Part shown: piece by piece, positions 23,201 to 63,554 of the stretch | How the letters are laid out: every line of letters starts with the position of its first letter | How positions within the stretch are numbered: position 1 is the first letter of the stretch | NCBI GenBank assembly: GCA_032718475.1 | Contig: JAUCBJ010003313.1 | Span: 2,583-66,582, forward strand | DNA from: Nemertoderma westbladi | Taxonomy: Eukaryota; Animalia; Xenacoelomorpha | Length of the DNA: 64,000 bases | Direction: 5' to 3' | Translations under genes and position numbers: made by a program | The notes under the pieces: model-generated | Seen by the model: only the letters and a program-made list of their open reading frames with translations | Told to the model about the DNA's origin: nothing | The model's database searches: none

Positions 23201-24530
23201 AGCGAAATATTTATTATTCAGAGTTTATGCGATTATTCGCAACATTCATGTCCCCAAGTTTATTCCTACAGTAATTGTGCTTGTTATACATACCGTTATA
23301 GTTAAACTAACCCCGGTACTACATCAGGGCTGCTCGGCGTAGGTAAAGACTGGTGACTTTGTGCTTTGGTCACTCCAGCAGATGCCGTGGTTCTTTTAAC
23401 TGTTCAAGTATATTTAACTACTGATTATTTGTTATACCGGTACTTGTACCTAATTTAGGGTTTAGTGTACAGTGCTTTCCGAAGTAATTAGTGTAGGCAG
23501 TATATTTGTGTTGTAAAGTGGTTGATAGGCACATTCGTTAGCTCTATTAGCTTCTGGGTAGGAACAATCCGTGATACATAACGTAGTACCTATAACGATA
23601 CGGTTATAGGTCGTCAGGCGGTGGTATTTTCCTATCTGGACAGTACAGTATATTTACTACTACTTATTATTTTCAAATACCGTAGTACCCTGTCCATTGT
23701 AATAACCAGAATTCTAACCCTTTGTTAGGCTGGTTTGTAGACTTCCTGTAAAATTACCCTAAAAATTCGTACGTAATATTTTTGTTGTGTTTAACTAGAG
23801 ATTTAATCTCACCCGTATCGTAAGTAATTTGTAGTATTAAGTAACTTAGGTAAATTAGAATTATCTGTTTTAGTGTCCCATAGGTAGCACTTCACTGAGA
23901 GCGCACAGCTTCTGTGTAGTGACTCCCCCAGAAATAATAACATCTATTTCAATATTGTAACAAAACCCCTCATACGGGTACATATAAATCCACTAAATCT
24001 ATTAATAAAATAGTAGGCCTATTATACAACACTTAGGTCTTAATATCAGTTGGACTGCTGCTCAAATAACGGTAATAAAGTAAGTAAAGTAACCAAGTGA
24101 CCCCTAACATTCAGAAATTCAATTATTTTTAAAATAATTGACATACCGGTATTTACAATAGGCTTATTATATTTATTTCCATAAATTTAAGCTGAAATCA
24201 TACCGGTATTCTGTAATTAATTTTAGTTCATAATTATACTTTATATATATTATAAGTGTAAGCTGTATACTGGTATCCACGATAGGCCTATTATATATTT
24301 ATATATATATTTGTGCTAAATTTATATACCAGTACTCTGTGACAAATCTAGTCTGTAATAATACTTATATATACTATAAGCATACCGGTATTCTAATATA
24401 TTATATATATATATCACGCTACATTGAGTAGCAGTATCGGTAATTAATTATTAGGCTAGCAGTGATACTGAATTACTAGACTTGCTTTAACTGTATATGT
24501 AGCAGTAGGCATCCAACTGTATAAAGCGAA

Positions 24531-27500: not shown

Positions 27501-27638
27501 AAGGGAGCGGAGAAAGTAACACAACAACTCAATCGCCCAGCTAGTCGTTTATGTTTACTGGAAAGAGACCGAAAACTGTCCGAAAACTATGGAAGGCAAG
27601 ATACCCAAGGAGGTGAGGTCTCTATAGGGGTGTCTTGA
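24531..27638 (+). CDS. BEL/Pao Gag-protease with remnant pol tips; one in-frame stop at 24948-24950
   Basis: Both ORFs are in the same frame. DUF1759-like KFNGDEMKW..EKLRFLIECLEG; three Pao zinc knuckles; ALLDSGSTGTFI protease; then WRHC..NPADIASRG and RPASRLCLLE. No RT or integrase core. Confidence 0.88.
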
Positions 27639-29523: not shown

Positions 29524-31715
29524 CCCTTTAGGTACTATGGATCACCCATGTGATACATAAGCAATGGTCTTCTAGAGCGCTATGTATCATACAGGTGATC
29601 CATGCTTTTAAATGTTACCCTATGCTATTCTATTCAGCTTTAGTGCATTTCTAAGCACTCTGCTATTTTATTAGTGCATCAAGGGACATCTTTTTAGATA
29701 CCGGTACCAGTTTACTGCACCTGACTAGCAGATATGTGACTCTTACCATACCGGTACGGTAGGTACGTAAGCTTCACAAAGGTCGCTTGAGTTTCAAGCA
29801 GTATATCAAAACCAAGCGCGCTCGGTTTGGAATTAAGTCATTCATTTTATGCGATGCAAATGGCTTCTTAATTCGTGCTCTATGTTACTACGGGAGTGAG
29901 TCCGCTTTACCACAGGTAGAAGCTGATCCAAAACTTTCAAAGAGCGAGAACGTTGTAGCGTTACTACTGTACTATTAGAGGAATCGGATATGTTCGGGAA
30001 GGGGTATACAGTTAATGTTGATAACTGGTACTGTAGTGTACGATTAGCCCGCTTTCTCCTTACCAAGGAAACTGGTTCGAGAGGAACTATTCGAGTAGTA
30101 CAGTAGTACTGAAAGAGTTTAAACAAACTCAGATCTCTTCAAAGTTTAGTTATTGTGGCAATAAGTTATTGGCCATGAAATTTACAGACAAGAGAGATGT
30201 GTACATGGTTTCGACGGTTGATGATTCGTCTATGGTAACAAAGACCAGGTATGCAAAGAAGACTGGAGATCCAACAGAATTCGAGAAACCAACTGTAATA
30301 AATAACTATAACAAGTTTATGGGAGGTGTCGATATACAATACTCAATTATAAAGTCATTCAATCCAGTTCGAAAATCGCATGCGTGGTTTAAGAAAGTTG
30401 GAATAAACATGATTGCTAGGTTGGTGGTAAACTCATTCTTGATCTATAAAAGGACGAATAATGGAAACCCAAAAGGAAATCTACAGTTACTTCTCTGTCT
30501 GAAGAAAGTTATAACAATTCTGACAAATATGAAGTCAGATGGTCCGAAGCTTAGTCGGAAACGGTTGAAGCTTATCGATTCAGCATCAACATCATCAAAG
30601 CCCGTGCACGCCGTCACGTTCATCCCCCCAACGGATAAAGCCGCGAAACCACGTCGTCGATGCCGAGTTTGCTACGCGAATGGCAGGCGTATTCGGCTGA
30701 CCCGCTTCCATTGCCCAATGTGCCCTTCAAAGCCAAGCTTATGCCATGGGTGTATCGCCAAGTGGGACCACAAATGAACAATAATAAGATAATTATAATT
30801 TCTATATAATTTCAATAAGAATAAATGGAAATTGTAAGTGCATCTACCATTATGTTTTTTGTAGTTTTTTTGGTTGGTTGGCATACCTTCTCAATTTTTG
30901 GCAGACAAACTGACAGAAAGGCGGACAAATATATATTGTAGATTTCGTCAAACGTAAAAACTGACATCAGAAATGAAATCACCGTCCAAGAAAACCCCCA
31001 TAGCCAAAATTTCCGGTTGATCGTATGCGTTCTTAGTTTTTGACAGACAAACTGACAGACAGACAGACGGACAAACAGACAGTGTAGATTTCGTTAAACG
31101 TAAAAATTGACATCAGAAATGAAATCACCGTCCAAGAAAACCCCATAGCCAAAATTTCCGGTTGATCGTATGCTTTCTTAATTTTTAACAGACAAACTGA
31201 CAGAAAGACGGACAAACAGACAGTGTAGATTTCGTTAAACATAAAAACTGACATCAGAAATGAAACCACCGTCCTAGAAAACCCCCATAGCCAAAATTTC
31301 CGGTTGATCGTATGGTTTCTTAATTTTTGACAGACAAACTGACAGAAAGACGGACAAACAGACAAACAGACAGTGTAGATTTCGTTAAACATAAAAACTG
31401 ACATCAGAAATGATACCACCGTCCAAGAAAACCCCATAGCCAAAATTTCCGGTTGATCGTATGCTTTCTTAATTTTTGACAGACAAAATGACAGAAAGAC
31501 GGACAAACAGACAAACAGACAGTGTAGATTTCGATAAACGGAAAAACTGACATCAGAAATGGAATCGCCGATCTTTAAAACCCCAAAGCGAAAATTTCAG
31601 GATGACGATATGCTTACTTAGTTTTTAACAGACAAACAGACAAAGGCAGCTCTAATTTGTAAAAATTTTCAGCGCATTACTATATGTTATTTGGGAATAT
31701 TCAGTACCTAAAGGG
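29524..31715 (+). mobile_element. Internally deleted piggyBac nested in the BEL element
   Basis: TTAA|CCCTTTAGGTACT...AGTACCTAAAGGG|TTAA; transposase fragments 29787-30777 (KRARFGIK, DNWY, YNKFMGGVD, Cys-rich domain). Confidence 0.95.
30890..31640. repeat. About 5 x 145-bp tandem repeat in the piggyBac 3' region
   Basis: Repeated ..CTGACATCAGAAATG..CCCCATAGCCAAAATTTCCGGTTGATCGTATG.. with ACAG microsatellite. Confidence 0.9.
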
Positions 31716-32776: not shown

Positions 32777-34226
32777 ATGACGGAATTGATAGAAGATGAC
32801 CTTGGTATTAGAGAGCGATATACTCTACCTTACAAGCGTTTGTGGATAGCTTGATACGCGGTGAAGCCGATCCGACTATTACGGAGGACGATGGTCGTTA
32901 TATCGAACCGCCGATGTCCCAAGAGCAACTTACGCGTGAATTGGACTATCGAAAATTAACCGCTCGCTATACGCATCATAATGGTACGTATATGGACTTC
33001 TTAACTACCGGCCATCCTATCGATTTACATGATACGGACGATGTAGACACCGAAAGGGAAATGGTTCTATTTAAATATCATACCCAGCGGCGTCGTAACG
33101 ATAAACCGAGAATAGATCACGAAAATTCTATTCGTAACAGACTGGGAAGACGAACCAATATGTCTAGAATCTGAGGAGATTCAGCCTATCGCGCTCGGAA
33201 CAGCGACAACGATTACATCCTAGAATGGTATCAAGGTCCACAGTGTCTCACTGCGTACGATTATCGCCATGCCAACTATGTTTCTCGGCAACGTTGTCGG
33301 TTATGCGCATCGAGAGACCATGTTACGCCCATGGACACCAACGATCCTCTGTTCCTATTTCCACGAGCAACCGTCGATGGAAATCTATTGTGCATATTGT
33401 CGGCTTTAATAATTTGCACATTTTTGCTGTCTGCCCCCAATTTATGACTCAATGTCACCATTGTCAACTAAAGGGACATGCCAGTTTCGATTGCCCTTTT
33501 AATCACGATTTGGAAAGCGTAGATGAAATGATCACACTACGTTACATCAGAGCTTGGGAAGCGAACACTGATTTATATTGTGATTCGCGCCATCGCTATT
33601 ATCCCGGACGCGCTTACGAAGGAGTTTATGCGTTACATCCTTATCTATTCGCTTCGGTTGAACAGAAATCACGCATATCAAGTTACGAGCTACTGAAGCG
33701 CGTCGGAGAATGTATTTCAACCAAATTCGTACGCAAATTTCTCAGGAGTGTTAATCCTAGCGACCTTCATTCCTATAACTTAATCAATCATATCCGTCAG
33801 GATCCGGACTATGGAGAATTGTTTGTTAACTCACACCCTGAGTTACAGGAAGTATATCGACGGCCTTACGAATACCGAGCCCGCGAACGCGAGTTGGAAA
33901 GAACCATTAAACCAAGGAAGTTTCTAACTGCCTATGGTCCACCCACGGCCCTCGTTCAGACCACTCGTAAAGGACCCGTAAGAGCGGCTGTCTTGAAACG
34001 AGCTCTCAAAGCCGTTAGACCCCTCTCCCCGGACGTTGATGTCAATCAACCCGGTACTTCGACCGGCGGATATACCGATCGCAATCCCATACCTTCTGAT
34101 GCAATCATATTGCACCCTTCACCCAGGAGTTATAGCCCTCCTCGTAAAGTGGCTCGCCCCAAAGAGAAAAGGACTCTTGCTAGCTTTAAAAAACTGCGTA
34201 AACGCCGTCCGCGCAAGAAAGACTAA
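32777..34226 (+). pseudogene. Accessory ORF of the BEL element: Cys/His zinc-knuckle protein with basic C-terminus (frameshifted)
   Basis: ORF pieces 32842-33174 and 33225-34226; CHHCQLKGHASFDC knuckle; CRLCASRDH and CAYC in adjacent frames; KKLRKRRPRKKD tail. Confidence 0.6.
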
Positions 34227-37883: not shown

Positions 37884-39570
37884 TCAGGGTCCATCGAATA
37901 GGTCACCCGGAGAGGGACCGCCCGTCACCATAACAGACGCCACGTTGCCCACTAGAATGGCCACCTGAATCCGCTGTAGGAGGAAGCGGAGTGAGCGGGG
38001 TTCGTGGGTGAACGCGTGCATTCGGGAGCCAACCTCCCGGAGGAAGGCCGCAGTCTCCGGGCCGGGGCGGCCGAGGGTCTCAAAGGCCACAGGATGGAAA
38101 ATGTGGAGGCCCTGCTGCTCCAGCTCGGCGTACGTCGCGCGTTTCCTCCGCTCTGCCTCCTCAGCTGTGCGCCCACCGGCGATGAGGGTCTGTTGGAGGT
38201 GGCTGGGGGCGAGGGGGTCGACTACCGTAGCGTCCCAAGTAAGGCTTTGTCCCCCGCTCCAAGGGGCGAGGCTCACCCCGTCCACTCGTTTCCCGTCGTT
38301 CCTGAAGAGACCCGGGGGTTCCAGGACTGATGGGATGTCGCAGCTGACCAGTGCCCGCCTCACCAAGTTGTTTATCATGGTGTGGCGGGGGTGCCGGCCC
38401 GCACTCCTCCGGCAGGAGAGGCCGTGAAGGCCGTCTGCGGCGACTGGACTACCGCAAAGGTCACAGGTGTGGGGTTCCACCACCTTGCACCCAAGCCGGG
38501 TGGCGATGGCGATCCGGAACTGGGTGTTGGTTAGTTTCAGCCCCAACGAGGCGCAGGGGAGGGCATCGAGCCAGCAGCTCGCTGTGGGGTTGTCGACCGA
38601 GTTCAGCCGCGCGAGGTTCAGTTGCGATGCTGCGCGAAAGGATGCTGGCGAGGGACTCCTCGTGCACCGGGGCCATCCATGCGCGCTGGACAGGCACGGT
38701 GGGCAGCGCCTAACCGGCTGGAAGGGAGGTGTTGCGCACTGCGTGTGCCAACTCTACTGCTGGGCTAGGGGGGACCTCTGCAGACGGGTAAAGGCGGTTG
38801 GAAAGAGTAGCGCATGCAGCCGTGGAAGCCAAGAAGGCGGAGGGTGCGATCTGTGCTGCAGAACTCAGTCCTAGGCCGCCAACCCTTGCCGGGAGGCATG
38901 CCTGGGCCCAGGCGAGTCATCAAAGTGGGTGTTGGCGACCTCCTGGAGTGTGCTACGCTGGACGCGATCAAAGTCCTGTAGTAGGGCCGGAAACCGGGAG
39001 CAGGGTGCCGTCCACAGGAAGTAGGTCAACCGCGGCATGGCAAATGAGTTCTTCAGGAGGAAGAACCCATGGTGGGCGTCGAGGAGCGGCAGGCGGCTAG
39101 CGAGAGTCAAGAGGTTTCCTACCTTGGAGGCGAGGCAGGACTCGATGGCGGAGTCTCCAATAGGCGCACCCAGCATCATCAGCTCGTCCAACGGCGGGTA
39201 CTGGATGCCAGCGCAAATGGTATCAAACTCCCGACGTATTTGGGCGCGTAACTCCTCCGTATCTGGCCCCAGGAAGAACACCTCACTCTTCCTGGGGTTT
39301 ATTGTTAAACCGCACTTCCTCCCCCCCTCCTCGATCAACTGCGCCAAGTCCCACAGTACCACCTGGGAGTCGTCGGAGAGGTTCCCATCGTCCAGGAAAC
39401 AGACGTTGAAGGCAGACTCCATTGTCTGGATGACGGGGTTGGCGGTGTCCCCCGAAGAGACGAGGGCCGTCAGTGTCCCCCTGCTGAACACCCTCGTCGG
39501 AGAGGATGGTGTCGTCGCCATGCATGAGGAAGGTCGCATCCCCATAGGCCGCGAGGGTGTAGTTGTATAT
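37884..39570 (-). mobile_element. CRE-like RLE non-LTR retrotransposon, 5'-truncated and frameshifted
   Basis: GVQQGD, FLDDG, LGAPIG; C-terminal CDLC..HGLSC..RH, KRVDG..WDATV..K, FETLG (restriction-like endonuclease). GC-rich. Confidence 0.85.
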
Positions 39571-39817
39571 GCCTAGAATTATATTATTGATTTATAGTTA
39601 AGATTTAATTAAGTTAAGTTATAATTTATTAAGATTACAGATCTTAGGGCAATTTCTATCAATGTATTTCTTATTTAGCGGTTTATTTTTTTTTTTCAGT
39701 TTGGCCTACTGTTATTCGTGATAATCGAACAGAGGCGTATTTAAGTTTTGGTCAAGGAGTAGGATAAAATTCACTTTAAAAATGACGTTGAAAAACGGAA
39801 AGGTGGTAGGCCTACAC

Positions 39818-40797: not shown

Positions 40798-41024
40798 GTC
40801 GCCTCCACAGTGCTACGTCGAAGGAACCAGTCGACCGCAGTGGCTCCCAATTGGCGTCACGTGATGGGTTTACTTCCCGCTAAACAAGATGAAATTCTCC
40901 AGGAAACGGAGAACCAATCAGAGGCCGAAAAGGTTTCGCTATTGCAGCGGTTCAGTAAAGCTGCGCGGCTATTGGTTATTGTCCTTCGGTTTATAAGACC
41001 AGAAAAGGAGACAGACAAGTCAAG
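40798..41024 (+). CDS. CNBD2-like gene, exon A
   Basis: TTCACAG| acceptor; ..LLQRFSKAARLLVIVLRF..; phase-2 donor AG|GTACAC matches the phase of the next exon. Confidence 0.6.
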
Positions 41025-41631
41025 GTACACCCGTAGCAGTAAACCGAGCCAGTAGTATACATGGAACTTATGGGGAGGGGTTGGTCTGTGTTAATTAATC
41101 AATTTCATAGCAAACCGGTCAAACCGGCATTTTACTAATAAAAGTGTCTTGTAATTATTAATATACACACATATATAAAATATAAATATGCAATAAACAA
41201 AATATGGCACAAATTATAGCGAAATTGTTCCAGAATTGTTGAAGGGAGTGGGACACCTTGTTTCCTAGTTTGTTGGAAACCACATCTGTTTATTACCGGT
41301 TCAGTTGTTTTTGTTGCATCACTGCCTGTTTTGGGATTATATATAGGGAAGTGAGTCTGTAACACGTTCATTATTCAGTGGTAAGCAATGTGAAGTCGTG
41401 ACTAGGTCATTGTTGCATGCAATGATACTTGATACATGGTCGCCATCTGGACTATTCATTCGAATTATTTCGCTTTGATTTTTCAGGGCTGCCAGCTGTA
41501 TCTCTTTGCAGAGGTTGCCAGCTGTATCTCTTTGTAGAGGTTGCCATGGCGATGGTGGTGGTGAAGTCCAACTTATTATTATGATTCAAGATTAAAATTA
41601 AAATATTTTGCTTATATTTTCTTTGCTGCAG

Positions 41632-41794
41632 AATTTCCTTCCACATGTTGCAAGCTCAGATCCGCGAGGAGGGGCGGAAGAAGCGGGAGCTGATGTTCGA
41701 CGTGTCGTTGTACCGGGCGAGGAAGGAAGCCCAGCTGCCACCGAAGGCGAGGGAGATACTGTCGATATCGCCAGGGTCGAGGTCCAAGGACGAG
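41632..41794 (+). CDS. CNBD2-like gene, exon B
   Basis: TTTGCTGCAG|a ISFHMLQAQIREEGRKKRELMFDVSLYRARKEAQLPPKAREILSISPGSRSKDE |GTGCGT. Confidence 0.75.
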
Positions 41795-42319: not shown

Positions 42320-42710
42320 TAATTGTTAACAACATCGTTTATTGTTTTGGTTAGAAAAAGCCGTCTCTGTAACGTGCTACTTTCCCTCACAATTGGTAAC
42401 AACATAGTTTATTGTTTTGATTAGAAAACGCCGTCTCTTTAACCTGCTCCTTTCCCTCATTTGGTAACAACATCGTTTATTGTTTTGGTTTGAAAAATAC
42501 GTATCTGTAACCTGATCCTTTCCCCGAATTGCTATAACAATATTGTTTATTGTTTTGGTAAGAAAAAGCCGTCTCTGTAACGTGCTACTTTCCCTCACAA
42601 TTGGTAACAACATAGTTTATTGTTTTGATTAGAAAAAAACCGTCTCTGTAACCTGCTCCTTTCCCTCATTTGATATTATCATTGGTTTATTTTTTTGGTT
42701 AGAAAAACCT
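42320..42710. repeat. About 5 x 75-78-bp intronic minisatellite
   Basis: Unit approximately TAACAACATCGTTTATTGTTTTGGTTAGAAAAAGCCGTCTCTGTAACGTGCTACTTTCCCTCA. Confidence 0.85.
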
Positions 42711-42944: not shown

Positions 42945-43076
42945 ATAAACTTGACGATAAGAGCTTTACAGACGACGTGTGAAGCCTTCGCAGAGTTTCC
43001 GGTGAGAATGCAGGAGAGTTTGGCCTCTAAAGCAATTTACAGTTGTATCCGTGGCAACAGAGTGATTATTCGACAG
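42945..43076 (+). CDS. CNBD2-like gene, exon C (start of cNMP-binding domain 1)
   Basis: TTTCAG| INLTIRALQTTCEAFAEFPVRMQESLASKAIYSCIRGNRVIIRQ |GTTATT; 132 nt, phase 0/0. Confidence 0.82.
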
Positions 43077-43489: not shown

Positions 43490-45228
43490 GAAATTTTCAC
43501 GGTGATGAAATCTTACTCTCTGATGAAGGAGCCCAACAAGGTGCCCCCGAGGGACCCCCTCTCTTCGGAGACACGATCAACGACACCATCCACTCGTTGA
43601 AATCCGATTTTAACGTATGGTATCTTGACGATGGTAACATGGCAGGATTGTATACCGTTGTTCTAGACGATCTGAGAACGATAATTGTGGAAGGGAAGAA
43701 ACTCGGCCTCACCCTAAACCCCTCAAAGTGCGAGCTATTTTTTCTGGGTCCAGTTTCTGACGATGATCGAGCCCGGATTCAGGAAGATTTCAATAGAGTT
43801 TGTGGAGGAAAGATCCAGTTACCTTCAGCTGACCAACTGATTATGCTAGGGGCCCCAATCGGATCCGAGGCTATAGAGTCCTGTCTGACTGACAAGATAA
43901 ACGACTTGGCCTTGATTAGCGACCGGCTTCATCTCCTCGACAGCCACCATGGATTCTTCTTGCTTAGGAACTCTTTCGCAATCCCTCGCCTGTTATATTA
44001 CCTCCGCTCTGCTCCATGTTTTTCGTTCCCCCAGCTTCTGGAAAGATATGACGATTCACTGCGGTCTGCATTGGTGAAAATGGCAAACGTCGGAATCAAT
44101 GACAGTTCGTGGATACAGGCCTGTTTACCAGCTCGTTCAGGTGGGTTGGGCCTAAGCTCAGCCATACAGCTCGCCCCTTCTGCCTATCTGGCTTCTGCGG
44201 CAGCATGTGCTGAACTTACTGGCTGTCTTTTCACCACCACTGCGCCTACTCCATCTCGAAACACCTTAACTGATCACGCCTATGTGCTCTGGAAGAGATC
44301 GGTGGCCACCGATTGCGAGCAACCTTCAGCGTCCTCTGTAAACATGCAGAAGACTTGGACAAACCCGATCCATGAAGAGAACCTCGCGTCACTTCGCCGC
44401 ACCGCTTCTCCAAAGAATATCGCTCGACTAAACTCTTTAGATGACCCTGTCGCCGGTTGCTGGATAGACGCGCTACCATCGTCGTCGCTAGGTTCAAAGC
44501 TAACTGACAGTCAGCTCCGCATCTCAATCGCTACTCGACTAGGCTGTCGAGTCACAGAACAACACACATGCGCCAGATGCGATAAGGAAGTCGATACCGA
44601 AGGCCTACATGGCTTGTCCTGCCAGAGGAGCTTGGGGCGGATTCCGTGCCACACGGCGCTAAATGACATCATAAAGCGCGCACACTCCAGCTGTGGTGTT
44701 CCGTCCATCCTGGAGCCGCCAGGCCTCTGTCGAATGGACGGTAAACGCCCAGACGGCATGACCCTCATCCCTTGGTCGCGCGGTAAGTCCCTGACGTGGG
44801 ACGCGATGGTTGTAGACCCTCTAGCGCCCAGCCATCTCGCTACCAGTCTATCCGCAGGAGGTCGTGTTGCCAAGGAGCAAGAAGAGACCAAATCCAGAAA
44901 GTACGAAGAACCAGTAGACCGATGATACCTCTTCGCACCAGTAGCCTTCGAAGCCCTTGGCCGGCCAGGACCAGCAACAACCTCATTCCTGAAAGAGGTC
45001 GGCAGGAAGATTTGACAAGCAACACAGGAACCCCGGTCTCATCGATTCCTGCTGCAAAGACTCCTGATAGCCATCCTAATCGGCAACTCGGCCTCGATCC
45101 TAGGAACTGTAGACTCCACTAACAATAGCAGCCTCTTCGACATACTTGAAGAACATTAATAATTAATAATTATTTAACATAAATACAAAACATTTAATTT
45201 AATTTAGTTTATATAAAAAAAAAAAAGT
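43490..45228 (+). mobile_element. CRE-like RLE retrotransposon, 5'-truncated, with A-rich tail
   Basis: ORF 43597-44925: WYLDDG, LPARSGGLG, CARC..HGLSC, KRPDG..WDAMV; nonsense codons near the end; poly-A at about 45214-45226. Confidence 0.88.
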
Positions 45229-45566: not shown

Positions 45567-49506
<3,940 letters not shown>

Positions 49507-49996
49507 TGAACCTAGTTTGGTTTTGCTTGATTTTTAGGTTTACAATCTTATTTCAGTATTAAAAAGCGTTTGCTGTATCGGTACTGCAGTATCAATATCC
49601 AATATCAACCAATATAAACCAGTAAGATGTATTACTATTATGTATTGCTCTTATTATTTGTGTTCATTATCCGGTTTCTTTATTTAGCAGCTTAAATTTT
49701 TAAATATATCGACCCTAAATAAATAATCTGTGGAGTTACAAGTTATTATATGCCTGAGGGTTAGCTATGCGTAAATTAACTCTTAAAATTTAGTCACCCT
49801 CTCTTACTCTATATTCTAGAAAATTTTTTAGAAAATATACTGTAACCTGTTCTATTGTGCTTAGTTTATTGTTTTTGTTAAAATAACGTGCCACTGTAAC
49901 CTGCTCCTAGTCGCCATTACTGTTTGTAGATAATCTGATGTTGCAATTTTAATTTGTTCCCTCAATAAATAATAAATAATTAACTTATTATTTCAG

Positions 49997-50135
49997 GGTC
50001 GTAAGGCTGAGAATTATTACCTGATACTAAGTGGCTCTGCTGCTGTTGATGTGTTGGATAAAGAGACAGGGATAACCTCCACAGCCGCAATGCTTTGTAA
50101 AGGAAACAGCTTCGGGGAATTAGCATTACTGCTGG
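49997..50135 (+). CDS. CNBD2-like gene, exon D (cNMP beta-barrel up to FGELAL)
   Basis: TTTCAG| GRKAENYYLILSGSAAVDVLDKETGITSTAAMLCKGNSFGELALLL g|GTAATA; ends in phase 1. Confidence 0.88.
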
Positions 50136-50654
50136 GTAATAATCGTTTATCTGTTTAATCATTTTCTTTAAAGATTGTAAAAATAGCAACAAAACTACTG
50201 AAAGGTGTTAAAATGTCTCCGATGATGACAGGAACAGCACCGGCGGACCCATCAACATAGATCTTACGGTCATACACTACCTTCTAGTTCATCCCTGTCG
50301 TCAAGTCCAGTGTCATTCAGCAAGTGTCATCTTTAGCAGGAAACTCATTGGCTGATGTCCACCACGTCTATTCTATCCAGAAGGCAGCCACAGCACAAGG
50401 TTGTGTAGGTTGATACTGCCAGCTGAAACAATGTCCAGCAAGCTTCAAACGGCGATGTAATTCTTTTGGTATAATGTCTCTCTCTAATGTTGTGTTTTTG
50501 ATTTGATTTGAAATAAATTGTCCTCTAATATCATTAATCACGTCATTCTATTATTTAGAAAGCCTAATGTTAACTTTTGTAGTTATCCAACTAAATACTG
50601 CCGATTGATTGGCTACTGTAGATTTGTAATGAATTAAGAATTTCTGTCTGATTG

Positions 50655-53600
50655 GCTACTGTTGTTTTGTTATTTTTAGGTGGTGTCCGATCTGCCACTG
50701 TAGTTTTGTTATTTTTAGGTGGTGTCCGATCTGCCACTGTAGTTTTGTTATTTTTAGGTGGTGTCCGATCTGCCACTGTAGCTTTGTTATTTTTAGGTGG
50801 TGTCCGATCTACCACTGTAGTTTTGTTATTTTTAGGTGGTGTCCGATCTGCCACTGTAGCTTTGTTATGTTTAGGTGGTGTCCGATCTACCACTGTAGTT
50901 TTGTTATTTTTAGGTGGTGTCCGATCTGCCACTGTAGCTTTGTTATTTATAGGTGGTGTCCGATCTGCCACTGTAGTTTTGTTATTTTTAGGTGGTGTCC
51001 GATCTACCACTGTAGTTTTGTTATTTTTAGGTGGTGTCCGATCTGCCACTGTAGTTTTGTTATTTTTAGGTGATGTCCGATCTGCCACTGTAGTTTTGTT
51101 ATTTTTAGGTGGTGTCCGATCTGCAACTGTAGTTTTGTTATTTCTAGGTGGTGTCCGATCTGCCACTGTAGTTTTGTTATTTTTAGGTGGTGTCCGATCT
51201 GCCACTGTAGTTTTGTTATTTTTAGATGGTGTCCGATCTGCCACTGTGGTTTTCTTATCTTTATGTGGTGCCCGATCTGCCACTGTAGTTTTGTTATTTT
51301 TAGGTGGTGTCCGATCTGCCACTGTAGCTTTGTTATTTTTAGGTGGTGTCCGATCTGCCACTGTAGTTTTGTTATTTTTAGGTGGTGTCCGATCTGCCAC
51401 TGTAGTTTTGTTATTTTTAGATGGTGTCCGATCTGCCACTGTGGTTTTCTTATCTTTATGTGGTGCCCGATCTGCCACTGTAGTTTTGTTATTTTTAGAT
51501 GGTGTCCGATCTGCCACTGTGGTTTTCTTATCTTTATGTGGTGCCCGATCTGCCACTGTAGCTTTGTTATTTTTAGGTGGAGTCCGATCTGCCACTGTAG
51601 TTTTGTTATTTTTAGGTGGTGTCCAATCTGCCACTGTAGTTTTGTTATTTCAGGTGGTGTCCGATCTGCCACCGTAGTTTTGTTATTTTTAGGTAGTGTC
51701 CGATCTGCCACTGTAGTTTTCTTATATTTATGTGGTGCCCGATCTGCCACTGTAGTTTTGTTATTTTTAGGTGGTGTCCGATCTGCCACTGTAGTTTTGT
51801 TATTTTTAGGTGGTGTCCGATCTGCCACTGTAGTTTTCTTATATTTATGTGGTGCCCGATCTGCCAATGTAGTTTTGTTATTTTTAGGTGGTGTCCGATC
51901 TGCCACTGTAGTTTTGTTATTTTTAGGTGGTGTCCAATCTGCCACTGTAGTTTTGTTATTTTTAGGTGGTGTCCGATCTGCCACTGTAGTTTTCTTATAT
52001 TTATGTGGTGCCCGATCTGCCACTGTAGTTTTGTTATTTTTAGGTGGTGTCCGATCTGCCACTGTAGTTTTGTTATTTTTAGGTGGTGTCCGATCTGCCA
52101 CTGTAGTTTTGTTATTTTTAGGTGGCGTCCGATCTGCCACTGTAGTTTTGTTATTTTTAGGTGGTGTCCGATCTGCCACTGTAGTTTTGTTATTCTTAGG
52201 TGGTGTCCGATCTGCCACTGTAGTTTTGTTATTTTTAGGTGGCGTCCGATCTGCCACTGTAGTTTTGTTATTTTTAGGTGGCGTCCGATCTGCCACCGTA
52301 GTTTTGTTATCTTTATGTGGTGCCCGATCTGCCACTGTAGTTTTGTTGTTTTTAGGTGGTGTCCGATCTGCCACTGTAGTTTTGTTATCTTTATGTGGTG
52401 CCCGATCTGCCACTGTAGTTTTGTTATTTTTAGGTGGTGTCCGATCTGCCACTGTAGTTTTGTTATCTTTATGTGGTGCCCGATCTGCCACTGTAGTTTT
52501 GTTATTTTTAGGTGGTGTCCGATCTGCCACTGTAGTTTTGTTATTTTTAGGTGGTGTCCGATCTGCCACTGTAGTTTTGTTATTTTTAGGTGGTGTCCGA
52601 TCTGCCACTGTAGCTTTGTTATTTTTAGGTGGTGTCCGATCTACCACTGTAGTTTTGTTATTTTTAGGAGGTGTCCAATCTGCCACTGTAGTTTTGTTAT
52701 TTTTAGGTGGTGTCCGATCTGCCACTGTAGTTTTCTTATATTTATGTGGTGCCCGATCTGCCACTGTAGTTTTGTTATTTTTAGGTGGTGTCCGATCTGC
52801 CACTGTAGTTTTGTTATTTTTAGGTGGTGTCCGATCTGCCACTGTAGTTTTGTTATTTTTAGGTGGCGTCCGATCTGCCACCGTAGTTTTGTTATTTTTA
52901 GGTGGTGTCCGATCTGCCACTGTAGTTTTGTAATTTTTAGGTGGTGTCCGATCTGCCACTGTAGCTTTGTTATTTTTAGGTGGTGTCCGATCTGCCACTG
53001 TAGTTTTGTTATTTTTAGGTGGTGTCCGATCTACCACTGTAGTTTTGTTATTTTTAGGTGGTGTCCGATCTGCCACTGTAGTTTTGTTATTTTTAGGTGG
53101 TGTCCGATCTGCCACTGTAGTTTTGTTATTTTTAGGTGGTGTCCGATCTGCCACTGTAGTTTTGTTATTTTTAGGTGGTGTCCGATCTGCCACTGTAGTT
53201 TTGTTATTTTTAGGTGGTGTCCGATCTGTCACTATAGTTTTGTTATTTTTAGGTGGTGTCCGATCTGCCACTGTAGTTTTGATATTTTTAGGTGGCGTCC
53301 GATCTGCCACCGTAGTTTTGTTATTTTTAGGTATTGTCCGATCTGCCACTGTAGTTTTGTTATTTTTAGGTGGTGTCCGATCTGCCACTGTAGCTTTGTT
53401 ATTTTTAGGTGGTGTCCGATCTGCCACTGTAGTTTTGTTATTTTTAGGTGGTGTCCGATCTGCCACTGTAGCTTTGTTATTTTTAGGTGGTGTCCGATCT
53501 GCCACTGTAGTTTTGTTATTTTTAGGTGGTGTCCGATCTACCACTGTAGTTTTGTTATTTTTAGGTGGTGTCCGATCTGCCACTGTAGTTTTGTTATTTT

Positions 53601-56600
53601 TAGGTGGTGTCCGATCTGCCACTGTAGTTTTGTTATTTTTAGGTGGTGTCCGATCTGCCACTGTAGTTTTGTTATTTTTAGGTGGTGTCCGATCTGCCAC
53701 TGTAGTTTTGTTATTTTTAGGTGGTGTCCGATCTCCCACTGTAGTTTTGTTATTTTTAGGTGGTGTCCGATCTGCCACTGTAGTTTTGTTATTTTTAGGT
53801 GGTGTCCAATCTGCCACTGTAGTTTTGTTATTTTTAGGTGGTGTCCGATCTGCCACTGTAGGTTTGTTATTTTTAGGTGGTGTCCGATCTGCCACTGTAG
53901 TTTTGTTATTTTTAGGTGGTGTCCAATCTGCCACTGTAGTTTTGTTATCTTTATGTGGTGCCCAATCTGCCACTGTAGTTTCGTTATTTTTAGGTGGCGT
54001 CCGATCTGCCACCGTAGTTTTGTTATTTTTAGGTATTGTCCGATCTGCCACTGTAGTTTTGTTATTTTTAGGTGGTGTCCGATCTGCCACTATAGTTTTG
54101 TTATTTTTAGGTGGTGTCCGATCTGCCACTGTAGTTTTGTTATTTCAGGTGGCGTCCAATCTACCACCGTAGTTTTGTTATATTTAGGTAGTGTCCGATC
54201 TGCCACTGTAGTTTTCTTATATTTATGTGGTGCCCGATCTGCCTCTGTAGTTTTGTTATTTTTAGGTGGTGTCCGATCTGCCACTATAGTTTTGTTATTT
54301 TTAGGTGGTGTCCGATCTGCCACTGTAGTTTTGTTATTTCAGGTGGCGTCCAATCTACCACCGTAGTTTTGTTATATTTAGGTAGTGTCCGATCTGCCAC
54401 TGTAGTTTTCTTATATTTATGTGGTGTCCGATCTGCCACTGTAGTTTTGTTATTTCAGGTGGCGTCCAATCTACCACCGTAGTTTTGTTATATTTAGGTA
54501 GTGTCCGATCTGCCACTGTAGTTTTCTTATCTTTATGTGGTGCCCGATCTGCCACTGTAGTTTTGTTATTTTTAGGTGGTGTCCGATCTGCCACTGTAGT
54601 TTTGTTATTTTTAGGTGGTGTCCGATCTGCCACTGTAGTTTTGTTATTTTTAGGTGGTGTCCGATCTGCCACTGTAGTTTTGTTATTTTTAGGTGGTGTC
54701 CGATCTGCCACTGTAGTTTTGTTATTTTTAGATGGTGTCCGATCTGCCACTGTGGTTTTCTTATCTTTATGTGGTGCCCGATCTGCCACTGTAGTTTTGT
54801 TATTTTTAGGTGGTGTCCGATCTGCCACTTTAGTTTTGTTATCTTTATGTGGTGCCCGATCTGCCACTGTAGTTTTGTTATTTTTAGGTGGTGTCCGATC
54901 TGCCACTGTAGTTTTGTTATTTTTAGGTGGTGTCCGATCTGCCACTGTAGTTTTCTTATATTTATGTGGTGCCCGATCTGCCACTGTAGTTTTCTTATAT
55001 TTATGTGGTGTCCGATCTGCCACTGTAGTTTTGTTATTTTTAGGTGGTGTCCGATCTGCCACTGTAGTTTTGTTATCTTTATGTGGTGCCCGATCTGCCA
55101 CTGTAGTTTTGTTATTTTTAGGTGGTGTCCAATCTGCCACTATAGTTTTGTTATTTTTAGGTGGTGTCCGATCTGCCACTGTAGTTTTGTTATTTTTAGG
55201 TGGTGTCCGATCTGCCACTGTAGTTTTGTTATTTTAGGTGGTGTCCGATCTGCCACTGTAGTTTTGTTATTTTTAGGTGGTGTCCGATCTGCCACTGTAG
55301 TTTTGTTATTTTTAGGTGGTGTCCGATCTGCCACTGTAGTTTTGTTATTTCAGGTGTCGTCCGATCTGCCACCGTAGTTTTGTTATATTTAGGTAGTGCC
55401 CGATCTGCCACTGTAGTTTTGTTATTTTTAGGTGGTGTCCGATCTGCCACTGTAGTTTTCTTGTATTTATGTGGTGCCCGATCTGCCACTGTAGTTTTGT
55501 TATTTTTAGGTGGTGTCCGATCTGCCACTGTAGTTTTGTTATTTTTAGGTGGTGTCCGATCTGCCACTGTAGTTTTGTTATTTTTAGGTGGTGTCCGATC
55601 TGCCACTGTAGCTTTGTTATTTTTAGGTGGTGTCCGATCTGCCACTGTAGTTTTGTTATTTTTAGGTGGTGTCCGATCTGCCACTGTAGATTTGTTATTT
55701 TTAGATGGTGTCCGATCTGCCACTGTGGTTTTCTTATCTTTATGTGGTGCCCGATCTGCCACTGTAGTTTTGTTATTTTTAGGTGGTGTCCGATCTGCCA
55801 CTGTAGTTTTGTTATTTTTAGGTGGTGTCCGATCTGCCACTGTAGTTTTGTTATTTTTAGATGGTGTCCGATCTGCCACTGTAGTTTTGTTATTTTTAGA
55901 TGGTGTCCGATCTGCCACAGTGGTTTTCTTATATTTATGTGGTGCCCGATCTGCCACTGTAGTTTTGTTATTTTTAGGTGGTGCCCGATCTGCCACTGTA
56001 GCTTTGTTATTTTTATGTGGTGCCCGATCTGCCACTGTAGTTTTGTTATTTTTAGGTGGTGTCCGATCTACCACTGTAGTTTTGTTATTTTTAGGTGGTG
56101 TCCGATCTGCCACTGTAGTTTTGTTATTTTTAGGTGGTGTCCGATCTGCCACTGTAGTTTTGTTATTTTTAGGTGGTGTCCGATCTGCCACTGTAGTTTT
56201 GTTATTTTTAGATGGTGTCCGATCTGCCACTGTGGTTTTCTTATCTTTATGTGGTGCCCGATCTGCCACTGTAGTTTTGTTATTTTTAGGTGGTGTCCGA
56301 TCTGCCACTGTAGTTTTGTTATTTTTAGGTGGTGTCCGATCTGCCACTGTAGTTTTGTTATTTTTAGGTGGTGTCCGATCTGCCACTGTAGTTTTGTTAT
56401 TTTTAGGTGGTGTCCGATATGCCACTGTAGTTTTGTTATTTTTAGGTGGTGTCCGATCTGCCACTGTAGTTTTGTTATTTTTAGGTGGTGTCCGATCTGC
56501 CACTGTAGTTTTGTTATTTTTAGATGGTGTCCGATCTGCCACTGTGGTTTTCTTATCTTTATGTGGTGCCCGATCTGCCACTGTAGTTTTGTTATTTTTA

Positions 56601-59600
56601 GGTGGTGTCCGATCTGCCACTGTAGTTTTGTTATTTTTAGGTGGTGTCCGATCTGCCACTGTAGTTTTGTTATTTTTAGGTGGTGTCCGATCTGCCACTG
56701 TAGTTTTGTTATTTTTAGGTGGTGTCCGATCTGCCACTGTAGTTTTGTTATTTTTAGGTGGTGTCCGATCTGCCACTGTAGTTTTGTTATTTTTTAGATG
56801 GTGTCCGATCTGCCACTGTGGTTTTCTTATCTTTATGTGGTGCCCGATCTGCCACTGTAGTTTTGTTATTTTTAGGTGGTGTCCGATCTGCCACTGTAGT
56901 TTTGTTATTTTTAGGTGGTGTCCGATCTGCCACTGTAGTTTTGTTATTTTTAGGTGGTGTCCGATCTGCCACTGTAGTTTTGTTATTTTTTAGATGGTGT
57001 CCGATCTGCCACTGTGGTTTTCTTATCTTTATGTGGTGCCCGATCTGCCACTGTAGTTTTGTTATTTTTAGGTGGTGTCCGATCTGCCACTGTAGTTTTG
57101 TTATTTTTAGGTGGTGTCCGATCTGCCACTGTAGTTTTGTTATTTTTAGGTGGTGTCCGATCTGCCACTGTAGCTTTGTTATTTTTAGGTGGTGTCCGAT
57201 CTGCCACTGTAGTTTTGTTATTTTTAGGTGGTGTCCGATCTGCCACTGTAGTTTTGTTATTTTTAGATGGTGTCCGATCTGCCACTGTGGTTTTCTTATC
57301 TTTATGTGGTGCCCGATCTGCCACTGTAGTTTTGTTATTTTTAGGTGGTGTCCGATCTGCCACTGTAGCTTTGTTATTTTTAGGTGGTGTCCGATCTGCC
57401 ACTGTAGTTTTGTTATTTTTAGGTGGTGTCCGATCTGCCACTGTAGTTTTGTTATTTTTAGATGGTGTCCGATCTGCCACTGTGGTTTTCTTATCTTTAT
57501 GTGGTGCCCGATCTGCCACTGTAGTTTTGTTATCTTTATGTGGTGCCCGATCTGCCACTGTAGTTTTGTTATTTTTAGGTGGTGTCCGATCTGCCACTGT
57601 AGTTTGTTATTTTTAGGTGGTGTCCGATCTGCCACTGTAGTATTGTTATTTTTAGGTGGTGTCCGATCTGCCACTGTAGTTTTGTTATTTTTAGGTGGTG
57701 TCCGATCTGCCACTGTAGTTTTGTTATCTTTATGTGGTGCCCGATCTGCCACTGTAGTTTTGTTATTTTTAGGTGGTGTCCGATCTGCCACTGTAGTTTG
57801 TTATTTTTAGGTAGTGTCCGATCTGCCACTGTAGCTTTGTTATTTTTAGGTGGTGTCCGATCTGCCACTGTAGTTTTGTTATTCTTAGGTGGTGTCCGAT
57901 CTGCCACTGTAGTTTTGTTATTTTTAGATGGTGTCCGATCTGCCACTGTGGTTTTCTTATCTTTATGTGGTGCCCGATCTGCCACTGTAGTTTTGTTATC
58001 TTTATGTGGTGCCCGATCTGCCACTATAGTTTTGTTATTTTTAGGTGGTGTCCAATCTGCCACTGTAGTTTGTTATTTTTAGGTGTTGTCCGATCTGCCA
58101 CTGTGGTTTTCTTATCTTTATGTGGTGCCCGATCTGCCACTGTAGTTTTGTTATCTTTATGTGGTGCCCGATCTGCCACTGTAGTTTTGTTATTTTTAGG
58201 TGGTGTCCGATCTGCCACTGTAGTTTGTTATTTTTAGGTGGTGTCCGATCTGCCACTGTAGTATTGTTATTTTTAGGTGGTGTCCGATCTGCCACTGTAG
58301 TTTTGTTATTTCAGGTGGCGTCCGATCTGCCACTGTAGTTTTGTTATTTTTAGGTGGTGTCCGATCTGCCACTGTAGTTTTGTTATTTTTAGATGGTGTC
58401 CGATCTGCCACTGTGGTTTTCTTATCTTTATGTGGTGCCCGATCTGCCACTGTAGTTTTGTTATTTTTAGGTGGTGTCCGATCTGCCACTGTAGTTTTGT
58501 TATTTTTAGGTGGTGTCCAATCTGCCACTGTAGTTTTGTTATTTCAGGTGGTGTCCGATCTGCCACCGTAGTTTTGTTATATTTAGGTAGTGTCCGATCT
58601 GCCACTGTAGTTTTCTTATATTTATGTGGTGCCCGATCTGCCACTGTAGTTTTGTTATTTTTAGGTGGTGTCCGATCTGCCACTGTAGTTTTGTTATTTT
58701 TAGGTGGTGTCCGATCTGCCACTGTAGTTTTCTTATATTTATGTGGTGCCCGATCTGCCAATGTAGTTTTGTTATTTTTAGGTGGTGTCCGATCTGCCAC
58801 TGTAGTTTTGTTATTTTTAGGTGGTGTCCAATCTGCCACTGTAGTTTTGTTATTTTTAGGTGGTGTCCGATCTGCCACTGTAGTTTTGTTATTTTTAGGT
58901 GGTGTCCAATCTGCCACTGTAGTTTTCTTATATTTATGTGGTGCCCGTTCTGCCACTGTAGTTTTGTTATTTTTAGGTGGTGTCCAATCTGCCACTGTAG
59001 TTTTGTTATTTTTAGGTGGTGTCCAATCTGCCACTGTAGTTTTCTTATATTTATGTGGTGCCCGTTCTGCCACTGTAGTTTTGTTATTTTTAGGTGGTGT
59101 CCGATCTGCCACTGTAGTTTTGTTATTTTTAGGTGGCGTCCGATCTGCCACCGTAGTTTTGTTATTTTTAGGTGGTGTCCGATCTGCCACTGTAGTTTTG
59201 TTATTTTTAGGTGGTGTCCGATCTGCCACTGTAGTTTTGTTATTTTTAGGTGGCGTCCGATCTGCCACTGTAGTTTTGTTATTTTTAGGTGGCGTCCGAT
59301 CTGCCACCGTAGTTTTGTTATTTTTAGGTGGTGTCCGATCTGCCACTGTAGTTTTGTTATCTTTATGTGGTGCCCTATCTGCCACTGTAGTTTTGTTATT
59401 TTTAGGTGGTGTCCGATCTGCCACTGTAGTTTTGTTATCTTTATGTGGTGCCCGATCTGCCACTGTAGTTTTGTTATTTTTAGGTGGTGTCCGATCTGCC
59501 ACTGTAGTTTTGTTATTTTTAGGTGGCGTCCGATCTGCCACCGTAGTTTTGTTATTTTTAGGTGGTGTCCGATCTGCCACTGTAGTTTTGTTATTTTTAG

Positions 59601-62081
59601 GTGGCGTCCGATCTGCCACTGTAGTTTTGTTATCTTTATGTGGTGCCCGATCTGCCACTGTAGTTTTGTTATTTTTAGGTGGTGTCCGATCTGCCACTGT
59701 AGTTTTGTTATTTTTAGGTGGCGTCCGATCTGCCACCGTAGTTTTGTTATTTTTAGGTGGTGTCCGATCTGCCACTGTAGTTTTGTTATTTTTAGGTGGC
59801 GTCCGATCTGCCACCGTAGTTTTGTTATTTTTAGGTGGTGTCCGATCTGCCACTGTAGTTTTGTTATTTTTAGGTGGTGTCCGATCTGCCACTGTAGTTT
59901 TGTTATTTTTAGGTGGCGTCCGATCTGCCACTGTAGTTTTGTTATTTTTAGGTGGTGTCCGATCTGCCACTGTAGTTTTGTTATTTTTAGGTGGTGTCCG
60001 ATCTGCCACTGTAGTTTTGTTATTTTTAGGTGGCGTCCGATCTGCCACCGTAGTTTTGTTATTTTTAGGTGGTGTCCGATCTGCCACTGTAGTTTTGTTA
60101 TCTTTATGTGGTGCCCGATCTGCCACTGTAGTTTTCTTATCTTTATGTGGTGCCCGATCTGCCACTGTAGTTTTGTTATTTTTAGGTGGTGTCCGATCTG
60201 CCACTGTAGTTTTGTTATTTTTATGTGGTGTCCGATCTGCCACTGTAGTATTGTTATTTTTAGGTGGTGTCCAATCTGCCACTGTAGTTTTGTTATTTTT
60301 AGGTGGTGTCCGATCTGCCACTGTAGTTTTGTAATTTTAGGTGGTGTCCGATCTGCCACTGTAGTGTTGTTATTTTTAGGTGGTGTCCGATCTGCCACTG
60401 TAGTTTTGTTATCTTTAGGTGGTGTCCGATCTGCCACTGTAGTTTTGTTATTTTTAGGTGGTGTCCGATCTGCCACTGTAGTTTTGTTATTTTTAGGTGG
60501 CGTCCGATATGCCACAGTAGTTTTGTTATTTTTAGGTGGCGTCCGATCTGCCACTGTAGTTTTGTTATTTTTAGGTGGTGTCCGATCTGCCACTGTAGTT
60601 TTTTTATTTTTAGGTGGTGTCCGATCTGCCACTGTAGTTTTGTTATTTTTAGGTGGCGTCCGATCTGCCACTGTAGTTTTGTTATTTTTAGGTGGCGTCC
60701 GATCTGCCACCGTAGTTTTGTTATTTTTAGGTGATGTCCGATCTGCCACTGTAGTTTTGTTATCTTAATGTGGTGCCCGATCTGCCACTGTAGTTTTGTT
60801 ATTTTTAGGTGGTGTCCGATCTGCCACTGTAGTTTTGTTATTTTTAGGTGGTGTCCGATCTGCCACTGTAGTTTTTATTTTTAAGTGGCGTCTGATCTGC
60901 CACTGTAGTTTTGTTATTTTTAGGTGGTGTCCGATCTGCTACTGTAGTTTTGTTATTTTTATGTGGTGTCCGATCTGCCACTGTAGTTTTGTTATTTTTA
61001 GGTGGTGTCCGATCTGCCACTGTAGTTTTTGTTATTTTTAGGTGGTGTCCGATCTGCCACTGTAGTTTTGTTATTTTTATGTGGTGTCCGATCTGCCACT
61101 GTAGTTTTGTTATTTTTATGTGGTGCCCGATCGGCCACTGTAGTTTTGTTATTTTTAGGTGGTGTGCAATCTGCCACTATAGTTTTGTTATTTTTAGGTG
61201 GTGTCCGATCTGCCACTGTAGTTTTGTTATTTTTAGGTGGTGTCCGATCTGCCACTGTAGTTTTGTTATTTTTAGGTGGTGTCCAATCTGCCACTGTAGT
61301 TTTGTTATTTTTAGGTGGTGTCCGATCTGCCACTGTAGTTTTGTTATTTTTAGGTGGTGTCCGATCTGCCACTGTAGTTTTGTTATTTTTAGGTGGCGTC
61401 CGATCTGCCACTGTAGTTTTGTTATTTTTAGGTGGTGTCCGATCTGCCACTGTAGTTTTGTTATTTTTATGTGGTGCCCGGTCTGCCACTGTAGCTTTGT
61501 TATTTTTATGTGGTCTCCGATCTGCCACTGTAGTTTTGTTATTTTTAGGTGGTGTCCGATCTGCCACTGTAGTTTTGTTATTTTTAGGTGGTGTCCAATC
61601 TGCCACTGTAGTTTTGTTATTTTTAGGTGGTGCCCGATCTGCCACTGTAGCTTTGTTATTTTTATGTGGTGTCCGATCTGCCACTGTAGTTTTGTTATTT
61701 TTAGGTGGTGTCCGATCTGCCACTGTAGTTTTGTTATTTTTAGGTGGTGTCCGATCTACCACAGTAGTTTTGTTATTTTTAGGTGGTGTCCGATCTGCCA
61801 CTGTAGTTTTGTTATTTTTAGGTGGTGCCCGATCTGCCACTGTAGCTTTGTTATTTTTATGTGGTGTCCGATCTGCCACTGTAGTTTTGTTATTTTTAGG
61901 TGGTGTCCAATCTGCCACTGTAGTTTTGTTATTTTTAGGTGGTGTCCGATCTGCCACTGTAGTTTTGTTATTTTTAGGTGGTGTCCAATCTGCCACTGTA
62001 GTTTTGTTATTTTTAGGTGGTGTCCGATCTGCCACTGTAGTTTTGTTATTTTTAGGTGGTGTCCGATCTGCCACTGTAGTT
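50655..62081 (+). repeat. 11.4-kb tandem satellite, about 290 x 39 bp, derived from a splice-acceptor/exon junction
   Basis: Consensus TTTTGTTATTTTTAG|GTGGTGTCCGATCTGCCACTGTAG; the last unit runs directly into coding exon E. Confidence 0.97.
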
Positions 62082-62402
62082 TCCCATAACGAACTAGAAC
62101 TGCTGTGCCTTCCGCGAGAAGACTTCATCGAGATATTCATGCCGCCGTATCTGGAGGGACAGGAACCGGAATTCATTACCTTTCTTCGCACGGTGGAGGC
62201 GTTACGTGGCTGGCCAATAGACCAACTACCCTGGCGCGACCCAAATGTTTGTCTGTACACGTACTTCCGGAATGGAACGGTTATCTGTGCCGACGTTCGT
62301 AAAGCCGATTATATTTATATCGTTCGCCTTGGAAGCTGCGTCGCCTACCGGAAGATCCGACTCACAAAACCGAGTTTCAGACAATTCGATGGCGGTTTCT
62401 GG
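62056..62402 (+). CDS. CNBD2-like gene, exon E (RSATV of the phosphate-binding cassette and start of domain 2)
   Basis: Phase-1 acceptor gives FGELALLLG|GVRSATVVSHNELELLCLPREDFIEIF..YFRNGTVIC..YIYIVRLGSC. Putative donor TGG|GTAAAT. Confidence 0.85.
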
Positions 62403-62706
62403 GTAAATAATAATTGGAAAAATATATATAGCAATAAAAAGTTGCGAAATCAGTTCACAAAATAACCTTTTCTTGGAAAAATAATGTTGTTTATTTATGA
62501 TGTTAATAAAAATTCAAAATACTTAATTACTAAATTTAAAGTTATGTGTTATACATGAGAATGATAATGCAATGTATCAACCATCACAGAATGGAGGAAG
62601 AAAAATGTATTTAAATTACTGGTCTAAAATTACCAACCTAAAAAATATATAAATTAAATCAAAATATTCGATTAGCTGGTGAAATAAAGGATATTTTGTG
62701 AAATAG

Positions 62707-63262
62707 ATTTCCAATCACTAGAAATCCACAAGATAATGCGTCATCTACTGATGAATATTCTAGAATGAAAGCGACATATAACAAGAGAGTTAATAACTGG
62801 AATCAACGCAGTCAGCTGACCAATCAGGCTTCGTCCCATGAGAAATTCTTACAAATGAAATCCGATTGGCTATCAGAACGTTGGTTTGATACGATAGGTA
62901 AACGCTCGTCATTGATCAGTGGGACAGGAAAGTTAATAAACGGAACAGATGGGCGGGAGTTACAAGATAGATGGGTGGAAATACAACTGCTCCAAGCTAA
63001 AGATGTGTTCGGCTTATATGCGGCAGTATATTCAGAACAACCGATACAAGGTGTGAGTCTAGTATCTAAAGGTTGCGAGTGCATACTCATATCCAAAAAG
63101 TTCTTCATCAGCTGCACTAACTTGGTTGTCATGGAGAAGCTACGTACCCAAGTAACATCCTACATGACGGATGAAGAACTGCAGACACAGTTGATAGAGC
63201 AGGCTCAATGGGAAGGTTACCGCATGTTAACTGTCAGCGAGTTAATTACTAGAAACAAATAA
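62707..63262 (+). CDS. CNBD2-like gene, terminal exon
   Basis: VEIQLLQAKDVFGL..SLVSKGCECILISKKFF..LQTQL..WEGYR resembles the CNBD2 C-terminus. The 5' boundary is uncertain: its phase does not match exon E, so a small exon may be missing. Confidence 0.75.
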
Positions 63263-63554
63263 CTAATTAGAAGGATTTTCAATAACTTTCAGATTTACAG
63301 CCTACAGTAAGTCCACTAATGCCTACTATACAGAATACTCTCTAATATAATAATTATTTATTTAAATACATACAATTCATGTTTGTTTCTGTTGGAATAA
63401 ATGGTTGTCGACCACGTTTACTTTTACCATGAGGCCGTCAAAGATCGTTCTGCTATTGTGACCTCACCTGCTGTCTGCTGTTCCTCACCGCAAAATTTTT
63501 ACTTTTTTTAGTTATATTGAGATGCCATCTAGCGGTGCATAGTAACATACACAC

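Follow-up and report, generated by a model that had tools for sequence, protein, structure and literature searches.

Tandem repeats that copy an intron/exon boundary of their own host gene have been described and named in lancelets, where 'mirage' minisatellites occur in Adh3, the globins BflGb6 and BflGb9, troponin C and PGBD5 (PMC3087553). The class includes an acceptor-side case, BflGb6, and reverse transcription PCR (RT-PCR) suggests normal splicing (PMC3087553); for the Adh and troponin C mirages splicing is likewise reported not to be disturbed (PMC3902484). Here we describe an array of this kind in a putative CNBD2-like gene of Nemertoderma westbladi, within a 64,000-nucleotide stretch of contig JAUCBJ010003313.1 (hereafter the window, to which all coordinates refer). 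The array is an extreme-size case of a mirage-type minisatellite, and it most likely represents genomic clutter of a described type, notable for its size.

The array and its host gene

Tandem Repeats Finder (TRF) reported one array at 50658-62082, with a period of 39, 293.3 copies and 93% matches, and segmentation by 20 exon-derived bases yielded 293 units with exon starts running from 50680 to 62056. An initial annotation of this DNA had proposed that each 39-bp unit joins the last part of an intron to the first part of exon E in the host gene, and TRF, the segmentation and the exon model agree on this point, supporting an origin of the array as the amplified intron/exon E junction of the gene in which it sits. 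The acceptor AG is present in 238 of the 293 units (231 TAG, 7 CAG); in the other 55 the site reads TAT (53 units), AAT (1) or TAA (1). The array is therefore made up of 237 decoy acceptors and one authentic one, so that the earlier figure of about 290 tandem 3′ splice sites holds for the units but overstates the sites. Additionally, 222 of the 293 units read AG|GT. The parts of the gene and array are listed here from 5′ to 3′.

40798-41024, + strand: exon Z, a predicted coding exon on the upstream side of the CNBD2-like gene (partial 5′ model), with AG..GT ends
41632-41794, + strand: predicted coding exon A, from tblastn with homologs, splice sites and an open frame
42945-43076, + strand: predicted coding exon B, ending ...VIIRQ in phase 0 and followed by a 6.9-kb intron with retroelement open reading frames (ORFs)
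49997-50135, + strand: exon D, the cyclic nucleotide monophosphate (cNMP)-binding domain up to FGELALLL, with phase-1 donor TGG|GTAATA
50136-50660, + strand: non-array 5′ part of the host intron, between the exon D donor and the array
50607-50663, + strand: degenerate edge resembling about two units
50661-62082, + strand: tandem array, 293 x 39 bp, each unit a T-rich tract, AG and the start of exon E
61042-62055, + strand: final 26 decoy units, all stop-free and sharing the frame of exon E, with AG in 20; run length within chance
62054-62055, + strand: last AG, the presumed authentic acceptor, identical to the array consensus
62056-62402, + strand: exon E, 347 nt, the remaining cNMP-binding domain and the next conserved region, with predicted donor TGG|GTAAAT
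62702-63262, + strand: open frame with the candidate last exon F, homology at 62912-63259

Exon D matches positions 14-57 of the Pfam cNMP_binding model and the start of exon E positions 62-86, each alone falling below the Pfam cut-off. Splicing exon D in phase 1 to the last unit had been proposed to rebuild the phosphate-binding span of a cNMP domain, and joining the two exons does produce a 16-residue FGE..R.ATV span as in homologs, for example P0037 FGELALLYGGKRSATV. A HMMER search with exon E recovered 311 relatives at E<=0.001, while none of 78 candidates was significant in a separate protein homology search with the same exon. Ten of the HMMER relatives were looked up, and all come from marine or aquatic invertebrates; seven clusters contain a CNBD2-like-named member. 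Using longer homologs, tblastn placed further exons at 40.8, 41.7, 42.9 and 62.9-63.3 kb. A five-exon model spanning 40798-62402 is bounded by AG/GT and reads through 336 codons without a stop; its identity to six homologs, most of them CNBD2-like or cNMP-binding by source name, is 37-50%. The cNMP-binding FGE..R.AT/SV cassette and the flanking homology to CNBD2-like proteins thus identify the host, as predicted from sequence, as a CNBD2-like gene.

Several in-frame options link exon E to exon F, and a candidate 65-nt exon between them (62542-62606) would suit phase-2 acceptors of exon F. Among the homolog gene fragments compared (P0090, P0112 and P0077), two open on intron-like sequence immediately ahead of ELA/DLA, which is some seven codons upstream of the 50135/62056 intron, and several homolog fragments stop after YFR, where exon E reads through. 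The position of the host intron may be lineage-specific, a weak indication from few fragments.

The distance from the exon D donor is 544 nt to the first acceptor and 11,920 nt to the last. Between these lie 75 unit types, of which the consensus type occurs 118 times, and the 275 full-length units differ from the consensus by a mean of 3.2%. Every unit also has a second AG, 15 nt upstream of the main one; that of the last unit, at 62041, keeps the frame, and its use would place five more residues directly ahead of the binding-motif arginine.

As initially annotated, an in-frame run without stops begins at 61042 and comprises the 26 units that precede the last, 20 of them with AG; counting the last unit, units 267-293 carry AG in 21 of 27. 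The accompanying statement that most earlier acceptors give frameshifts or stops proved true of every one of the 217 AG acceptors in units 1-266. With 17 insertions or deletions (indels) in 292 intervals, the probability of a last in-frame run of at least 26 units is 0.19, and in-frame runs of 63, 45 and 36 units are present elsewhere in the array; selection for an in-frame tail was rejected on this probability. Loss of the AG ranges from 1 to 8 per 30 units, with 4 losses in the last 23 units, and selection for AG loss near exon E was also rejected because the losses are not clustered there. The 48 distinct array variants divide into 17 synonymous, 28 replacement and 3 stop, compared with 35, 76 and 6 possible changes, and the last 26 units hold 7 replacement and 5 synonymous variants. 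Coding constraint was rejected since this split is close to that of the possible changes, and variation within the array is likely neutral-like.

The degenerate edge at the 5′ side has a local score of 34, which one of 972 control tiles exceeded and none of 2000 shuffles reached. It carries a CTGAT branch-point motif whose A lies at -29 from the first acceptor, and it is either a remnant of old, decayed copies or a direct repeat from which the duplication was seeded. In register, this 5′ edge is identical at 19 of 39 positions and the 3′ terminal copy equals the consensus, so one edge is divergent. Blocks of identical units, holding as many as 5 variant units, recur far apart (units 14-21 match units 169-176), whereas none of 30 shuffles exceeded 2; this shows growth by block duplication. 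The first 39-bp duplication may have been seeded by an imperfect direct repeat common to the intron end and the exon start, with slippage or unequal exchange as the probable route of later growth and turnover. Outside the array, the best unit-like match among 972 tiles (1-50450, both strands) was a gappy one near 5617, which we judged to be chance.

Independent sequencing runs and gene integrity

Six sequencing runs were found, none recorded as RNA, and three of them contain about 90% of the words of exons E-F. Four runs (X1, X2, X3 and X5) were compared with the window over 62037-63400; X1 and X2 represent one sample and X5 is a third sample. Head-to-tail joints, at which the sequence goes back 39 bases, are present in X1, X2 and X3. 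The main unit contig has a depth of 368 in X1, 493 in X2 and 4367-5229 in X3, with unique sequence at 5-7, 23 and 6, respectively, so that the ratio of unit to single-copy depth is 55-77x, 21x and 692-829x; the window holds about 130 copies of the words in question. In X5 the unit occurs at depth 376 and exons E and F are uncovered, hence no ratio. Three runs from two samples thus hold unit words at depths far exceeding single copy, and a third sample has them as well, so that the array is not purely an artefact of assembly. The ratios also hint at large differences in array length between samples, although X1 and X2, which share one sample, differ threefold, and contig depth is not copy number.

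Unique exon E contigs start at the array junction in X1, X2 and X3. Among the pieces listed, no loose end led from the unit into foreign sequence, a weak negative given that 46 nt of the unit were compared and that the left entry of the array was likewise unseen. An exact search of metagenome contigs for the unit returned 0 matches, which is uninformative for an animal repeat.

None of the runs is identical to the window across the compared region. Exons E and F hold seven differences: a single X2 contig carries four of them, and the other three are on contigs starting at, or continuing from, the array junction region. All four X2 differences in exon E are synonymous, as are all three in exon F; the seven are third-position changes throughout, and the expected synonymous share is 21-23% per site (product 2.6e-5). 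With every exon difference synonymous and the array variants unconstrained, it follows that the exons are under purifying selection and the repeats are not, and the gene likely still works through the last AG.

Splice-site choice across the array

We think it probable that the array is a minisatellite of the 'mirage' type, likely neutral, and that it is likely spliced out with the intron through the exon-proximal last AG. That AG would be chosen by exon definition, pairing with the exon E donor 347 nt away, and nonsense-mediated decay would clear mis-spliced RNA. Use of the first acceptor would lead to a stop about 10.7 kb upstream of the exon E donor, and this early stop is the reason its product is predicted to undergo decay. 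Selection on the exons implies sufficiently frequent use of the last AG, and exon definition would be the simplest way to achieve this. A masking hairpin was not found: the last 435 nt of the array plus the exon start fold at -103.9, versus -102.1 +/- 6.7 for shuffles.

Several points weigh against this account. A yUnAy motif at -29 occurs in 2 of the 293 units, unit 1 included and the last unit not, and the -29 site is mostly CCGAT in the array copies, the last among them. The first acceptor, with yUnAy at -29, would close a 544-nt intron, whereas the last has CCGAT and lacks a yUnAy in its nearest 60 nt; under first-AG scanning, the decoy would be preferred. We infer use of the last AG from sequence, and extending the published cases (3 and 6 units in BflGb6, 5-9 in F7) to 237 decoys would be a stretch. 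The synonymous differences, moreover, speak of selection on the gene in the population and are not proof that the long allele makes protein, and some of them may be older than the array.

Instead of staying silent, the upstream acceptors, chiefly the first, might take a share of splicing that rises with array length and ends in nonsense-mediated decay, a rheostat through which alleles would differ in CNBD2-like output. The branch-point motif found at -29 in the first unit and absent from the last would suit such leakage, as would the frameshift or stop that follows from 217 of 217 AG acceptors in units 1-266, the depth ratios that vary by sample between 21x (X2), 55-77x (X1) and 692-829x (X3), and the existence of intronic variable number tandem repeats (VNTRs) that affect splicing (PMC5954066, PMC10078293). 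However, AG along the array bears no sign of selection for or against it, the roughly threefold gap between X1 and X2 arises within one sample and reflects contig depth and not copy number, and published mirages are reported without aberrant mRNA (PMC3902484). The observations can be accounted for without a rheostat, and we consider leakage of this kind unlikely. A unit GT might also be joined as a donor with some later AG, so that the array would be spliced out first and the ancestral 544-nt intron, with its branch point, would re-form by nested or recursive splicing of the Rogers type. Although 222 of 293 units offer AG|GT, the donors of the gene itself are weak (5-7 of 9 consensus matches) and a duplication across an intron/exon boundary in potato created a new intron (PMC4974935), the unit donor TAG|GTGGTG scores 4/9 and the recursive junction TGG|GTGGTG 3/9, both below all five real donors. 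The last AG would need recognition in any case, and simple skipping explains the same mRNA, which makes such self-collapse very unlikely. Leakage and collapse can be combined, in that a length-polymorphic ladder of hundreds of decoys whose first member retains the branch point of the intron would act as a heritable dial on CNBD2-like output via RNA decay, while nested AG|GT splicing collapses the array and rescues the gene; we hold this combination to be doubtful.

The initial annotation had further suggested that in-frame acceptors would add (GGVRSATVVLLFL)n and that the array could be raw material for a new repetitive protein, in the manner of an antifreeze glycoprotein; on this reading, the additions to the cNMP domain would be under selection. 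Each unit spans 13 codons, and no stop or change of frame interrupts the 26 units before the last, of which 20 have AG. Three things contradict the idea: the array is free of coding constraint, 17 frameshifting indels lie upstream and the in-frame tail is of chance-level length (P=0.19); variants are neutral-like overall, with 7 replacement and 5 synonymous in the last 26 units, and the insert is strongly hydrophobic and would presumably sit inside a conserved domain. We give this reading the least credence of all. On the associated claim of an insert into the ligand pocket, use of an in-frame acceptor upstream would, as the sequence reads, already complete the phosphate-binding motif with the first copy, so that the additional 13-mers would follow the motif and not split it. 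Scarcely more credible is that the array is real but the long allele dead, that its length is mis-assembled or that the unit is a satellite at other loci too. The X3 depth ratio is above that expected from 293 units, and the comparison of independent runs covers the right (exon E) side of the array. Against this, 75 unit types and patterned block repeats are unlike a collapsed or looped assembly, in X1, X2 and X3 alike the array junction is the starting point of the unique exon E contigs, with the weak addition that no loose end to foreign sequence was seen, and every exon found is intact.

What stands out at this locus is the size of the array, the hint of length differences between samples and the canonical branch-point motif at the first decoy but not at the real acceptor. 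The locus offers a natural test of 3′ splice-site choice, with one donor facing 238 near-identical acceptors across 11.4 kb, of which the first has the better branch motif and the last adjoins the exon. It could tell exon definition apart from first-AG scanning on a scale larger than that of the published cases compared. Should output turn out to follow array length, the copy number of splice sites would serve as a dial on a conserved gene for a cNMP-binding protein.

The surrounding sequence and known systems

Two smaller repeats lie within the gene. At 41490-41546, about 90 nt upstream of the exon A acceptor, a 26-bp unit is repeated 2.2 times with acceptor-like TCTCTTTGCAG and is possibly a small junction duplication. 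A 70-bp tandem repeat with 5.6 copies occupies 42321-42707 in intron A-B; because a 48-nt relative lies at 49861-49908, just upstream of exon D, this repeat is a dispersed element. Related-looking ORFs of non-LTR (long terminal repeat) retroelements lie in and before the gene at 43492-44925 (+), 46189-49533 (-) and 37884-39572 (-), that at 46189-49533 (-) encoding a reverse transcriptase and a Ulp1-type protease. Farther upstream, 7786-8685 (+) is an apparently intronless open frame of 299 codons with an SH3 domain and a DUF1151 match. Two transposase ORFs with DDE_Tnp_1_7 at 13031-14848 and 30037-30777 (+), the first an open frame of 605 codons, are ones we take to be piggyBac-like, and a gag-protease ORF with DUF1759 at 24525-27638 (+) is presumably BEL/Pao-like. 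At 32812-34226 (+), two open frames lie next to each other, one of 120 and one of 352 codons, with no Pfam match.

The antifreeze glycoprotein (AFGP) of notothenioids had been named in the initial annotation as a precedent, and its repeat unit reportedly straddles an intron/exon junction. Both systems involve repeat expansion from intronic and exonic sequence of a parent gene, but in AFGP a new gene encodes the repeats as its product (PMC5850335, PMC12776774), whereas here the repeats are unconstrained and it is the host gene that is under selection; the analogy fails on coding constraint. In the Rogers model of intron gain, as described for potato RdRp, a duplication likewise spans an intron/exon boundary with AG|GT in the unit; RNA-seq shows a new intron and exon there (PMC4974935), whereas here the unit donor is weak (4/9) and its use would be hypothetical.

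Human genes provide parallels for splicing past unused copies. In CBS 844ins68 the boundary between intron 7 and exon 8 is duplicated, the downstream copy is used and the mRNA is normal, although that duplication comprises two 68-bp copies and ours hundreds (PMC2630376). The unit of the 37-bp VNTR in F7 intron 7 also spans a splice junction, with identical pseudo-sites that are silent and only the exon-proximal site used; unlike the present array, it lies on the donor side, has 5-9 copies and was tested by mutagenesis (PMC1557585).

Our literature search returned no acceptor array of hundreds of units, but it was not made by the term 'mirage', and we therefore do not claim the largest known. 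As judged from its sequence, the array has the structural features of a lancelet mirage. It consists of tandem copies of a host-gene intron/exon boundary, the 3′ intron end and 5′ exon part as in BflGb6; it keeps the splice signal in many but not all units (here 238/293); its unit length falls within the 10-160 bp range; and it combines a homogenised interior with a divergent edge, here the 5′ edge only, and with variant blocks repeated beyond 30/30 shuffles (PMC3087553). Mirages differ in length between haplotypes (PMC3087553), and depth ratios here run from 21x to 829x between runs, threefold of it within one sample. Where the accounts of the lancelet cases and ours part is that normal splicing was checked there by RT-PCR and is predicted here, that the authentic terminal copy here equals the consensus, and that 293 units and 11.4 kb stand against the 3 and 6 units of BflGb6 (PMC3087553).

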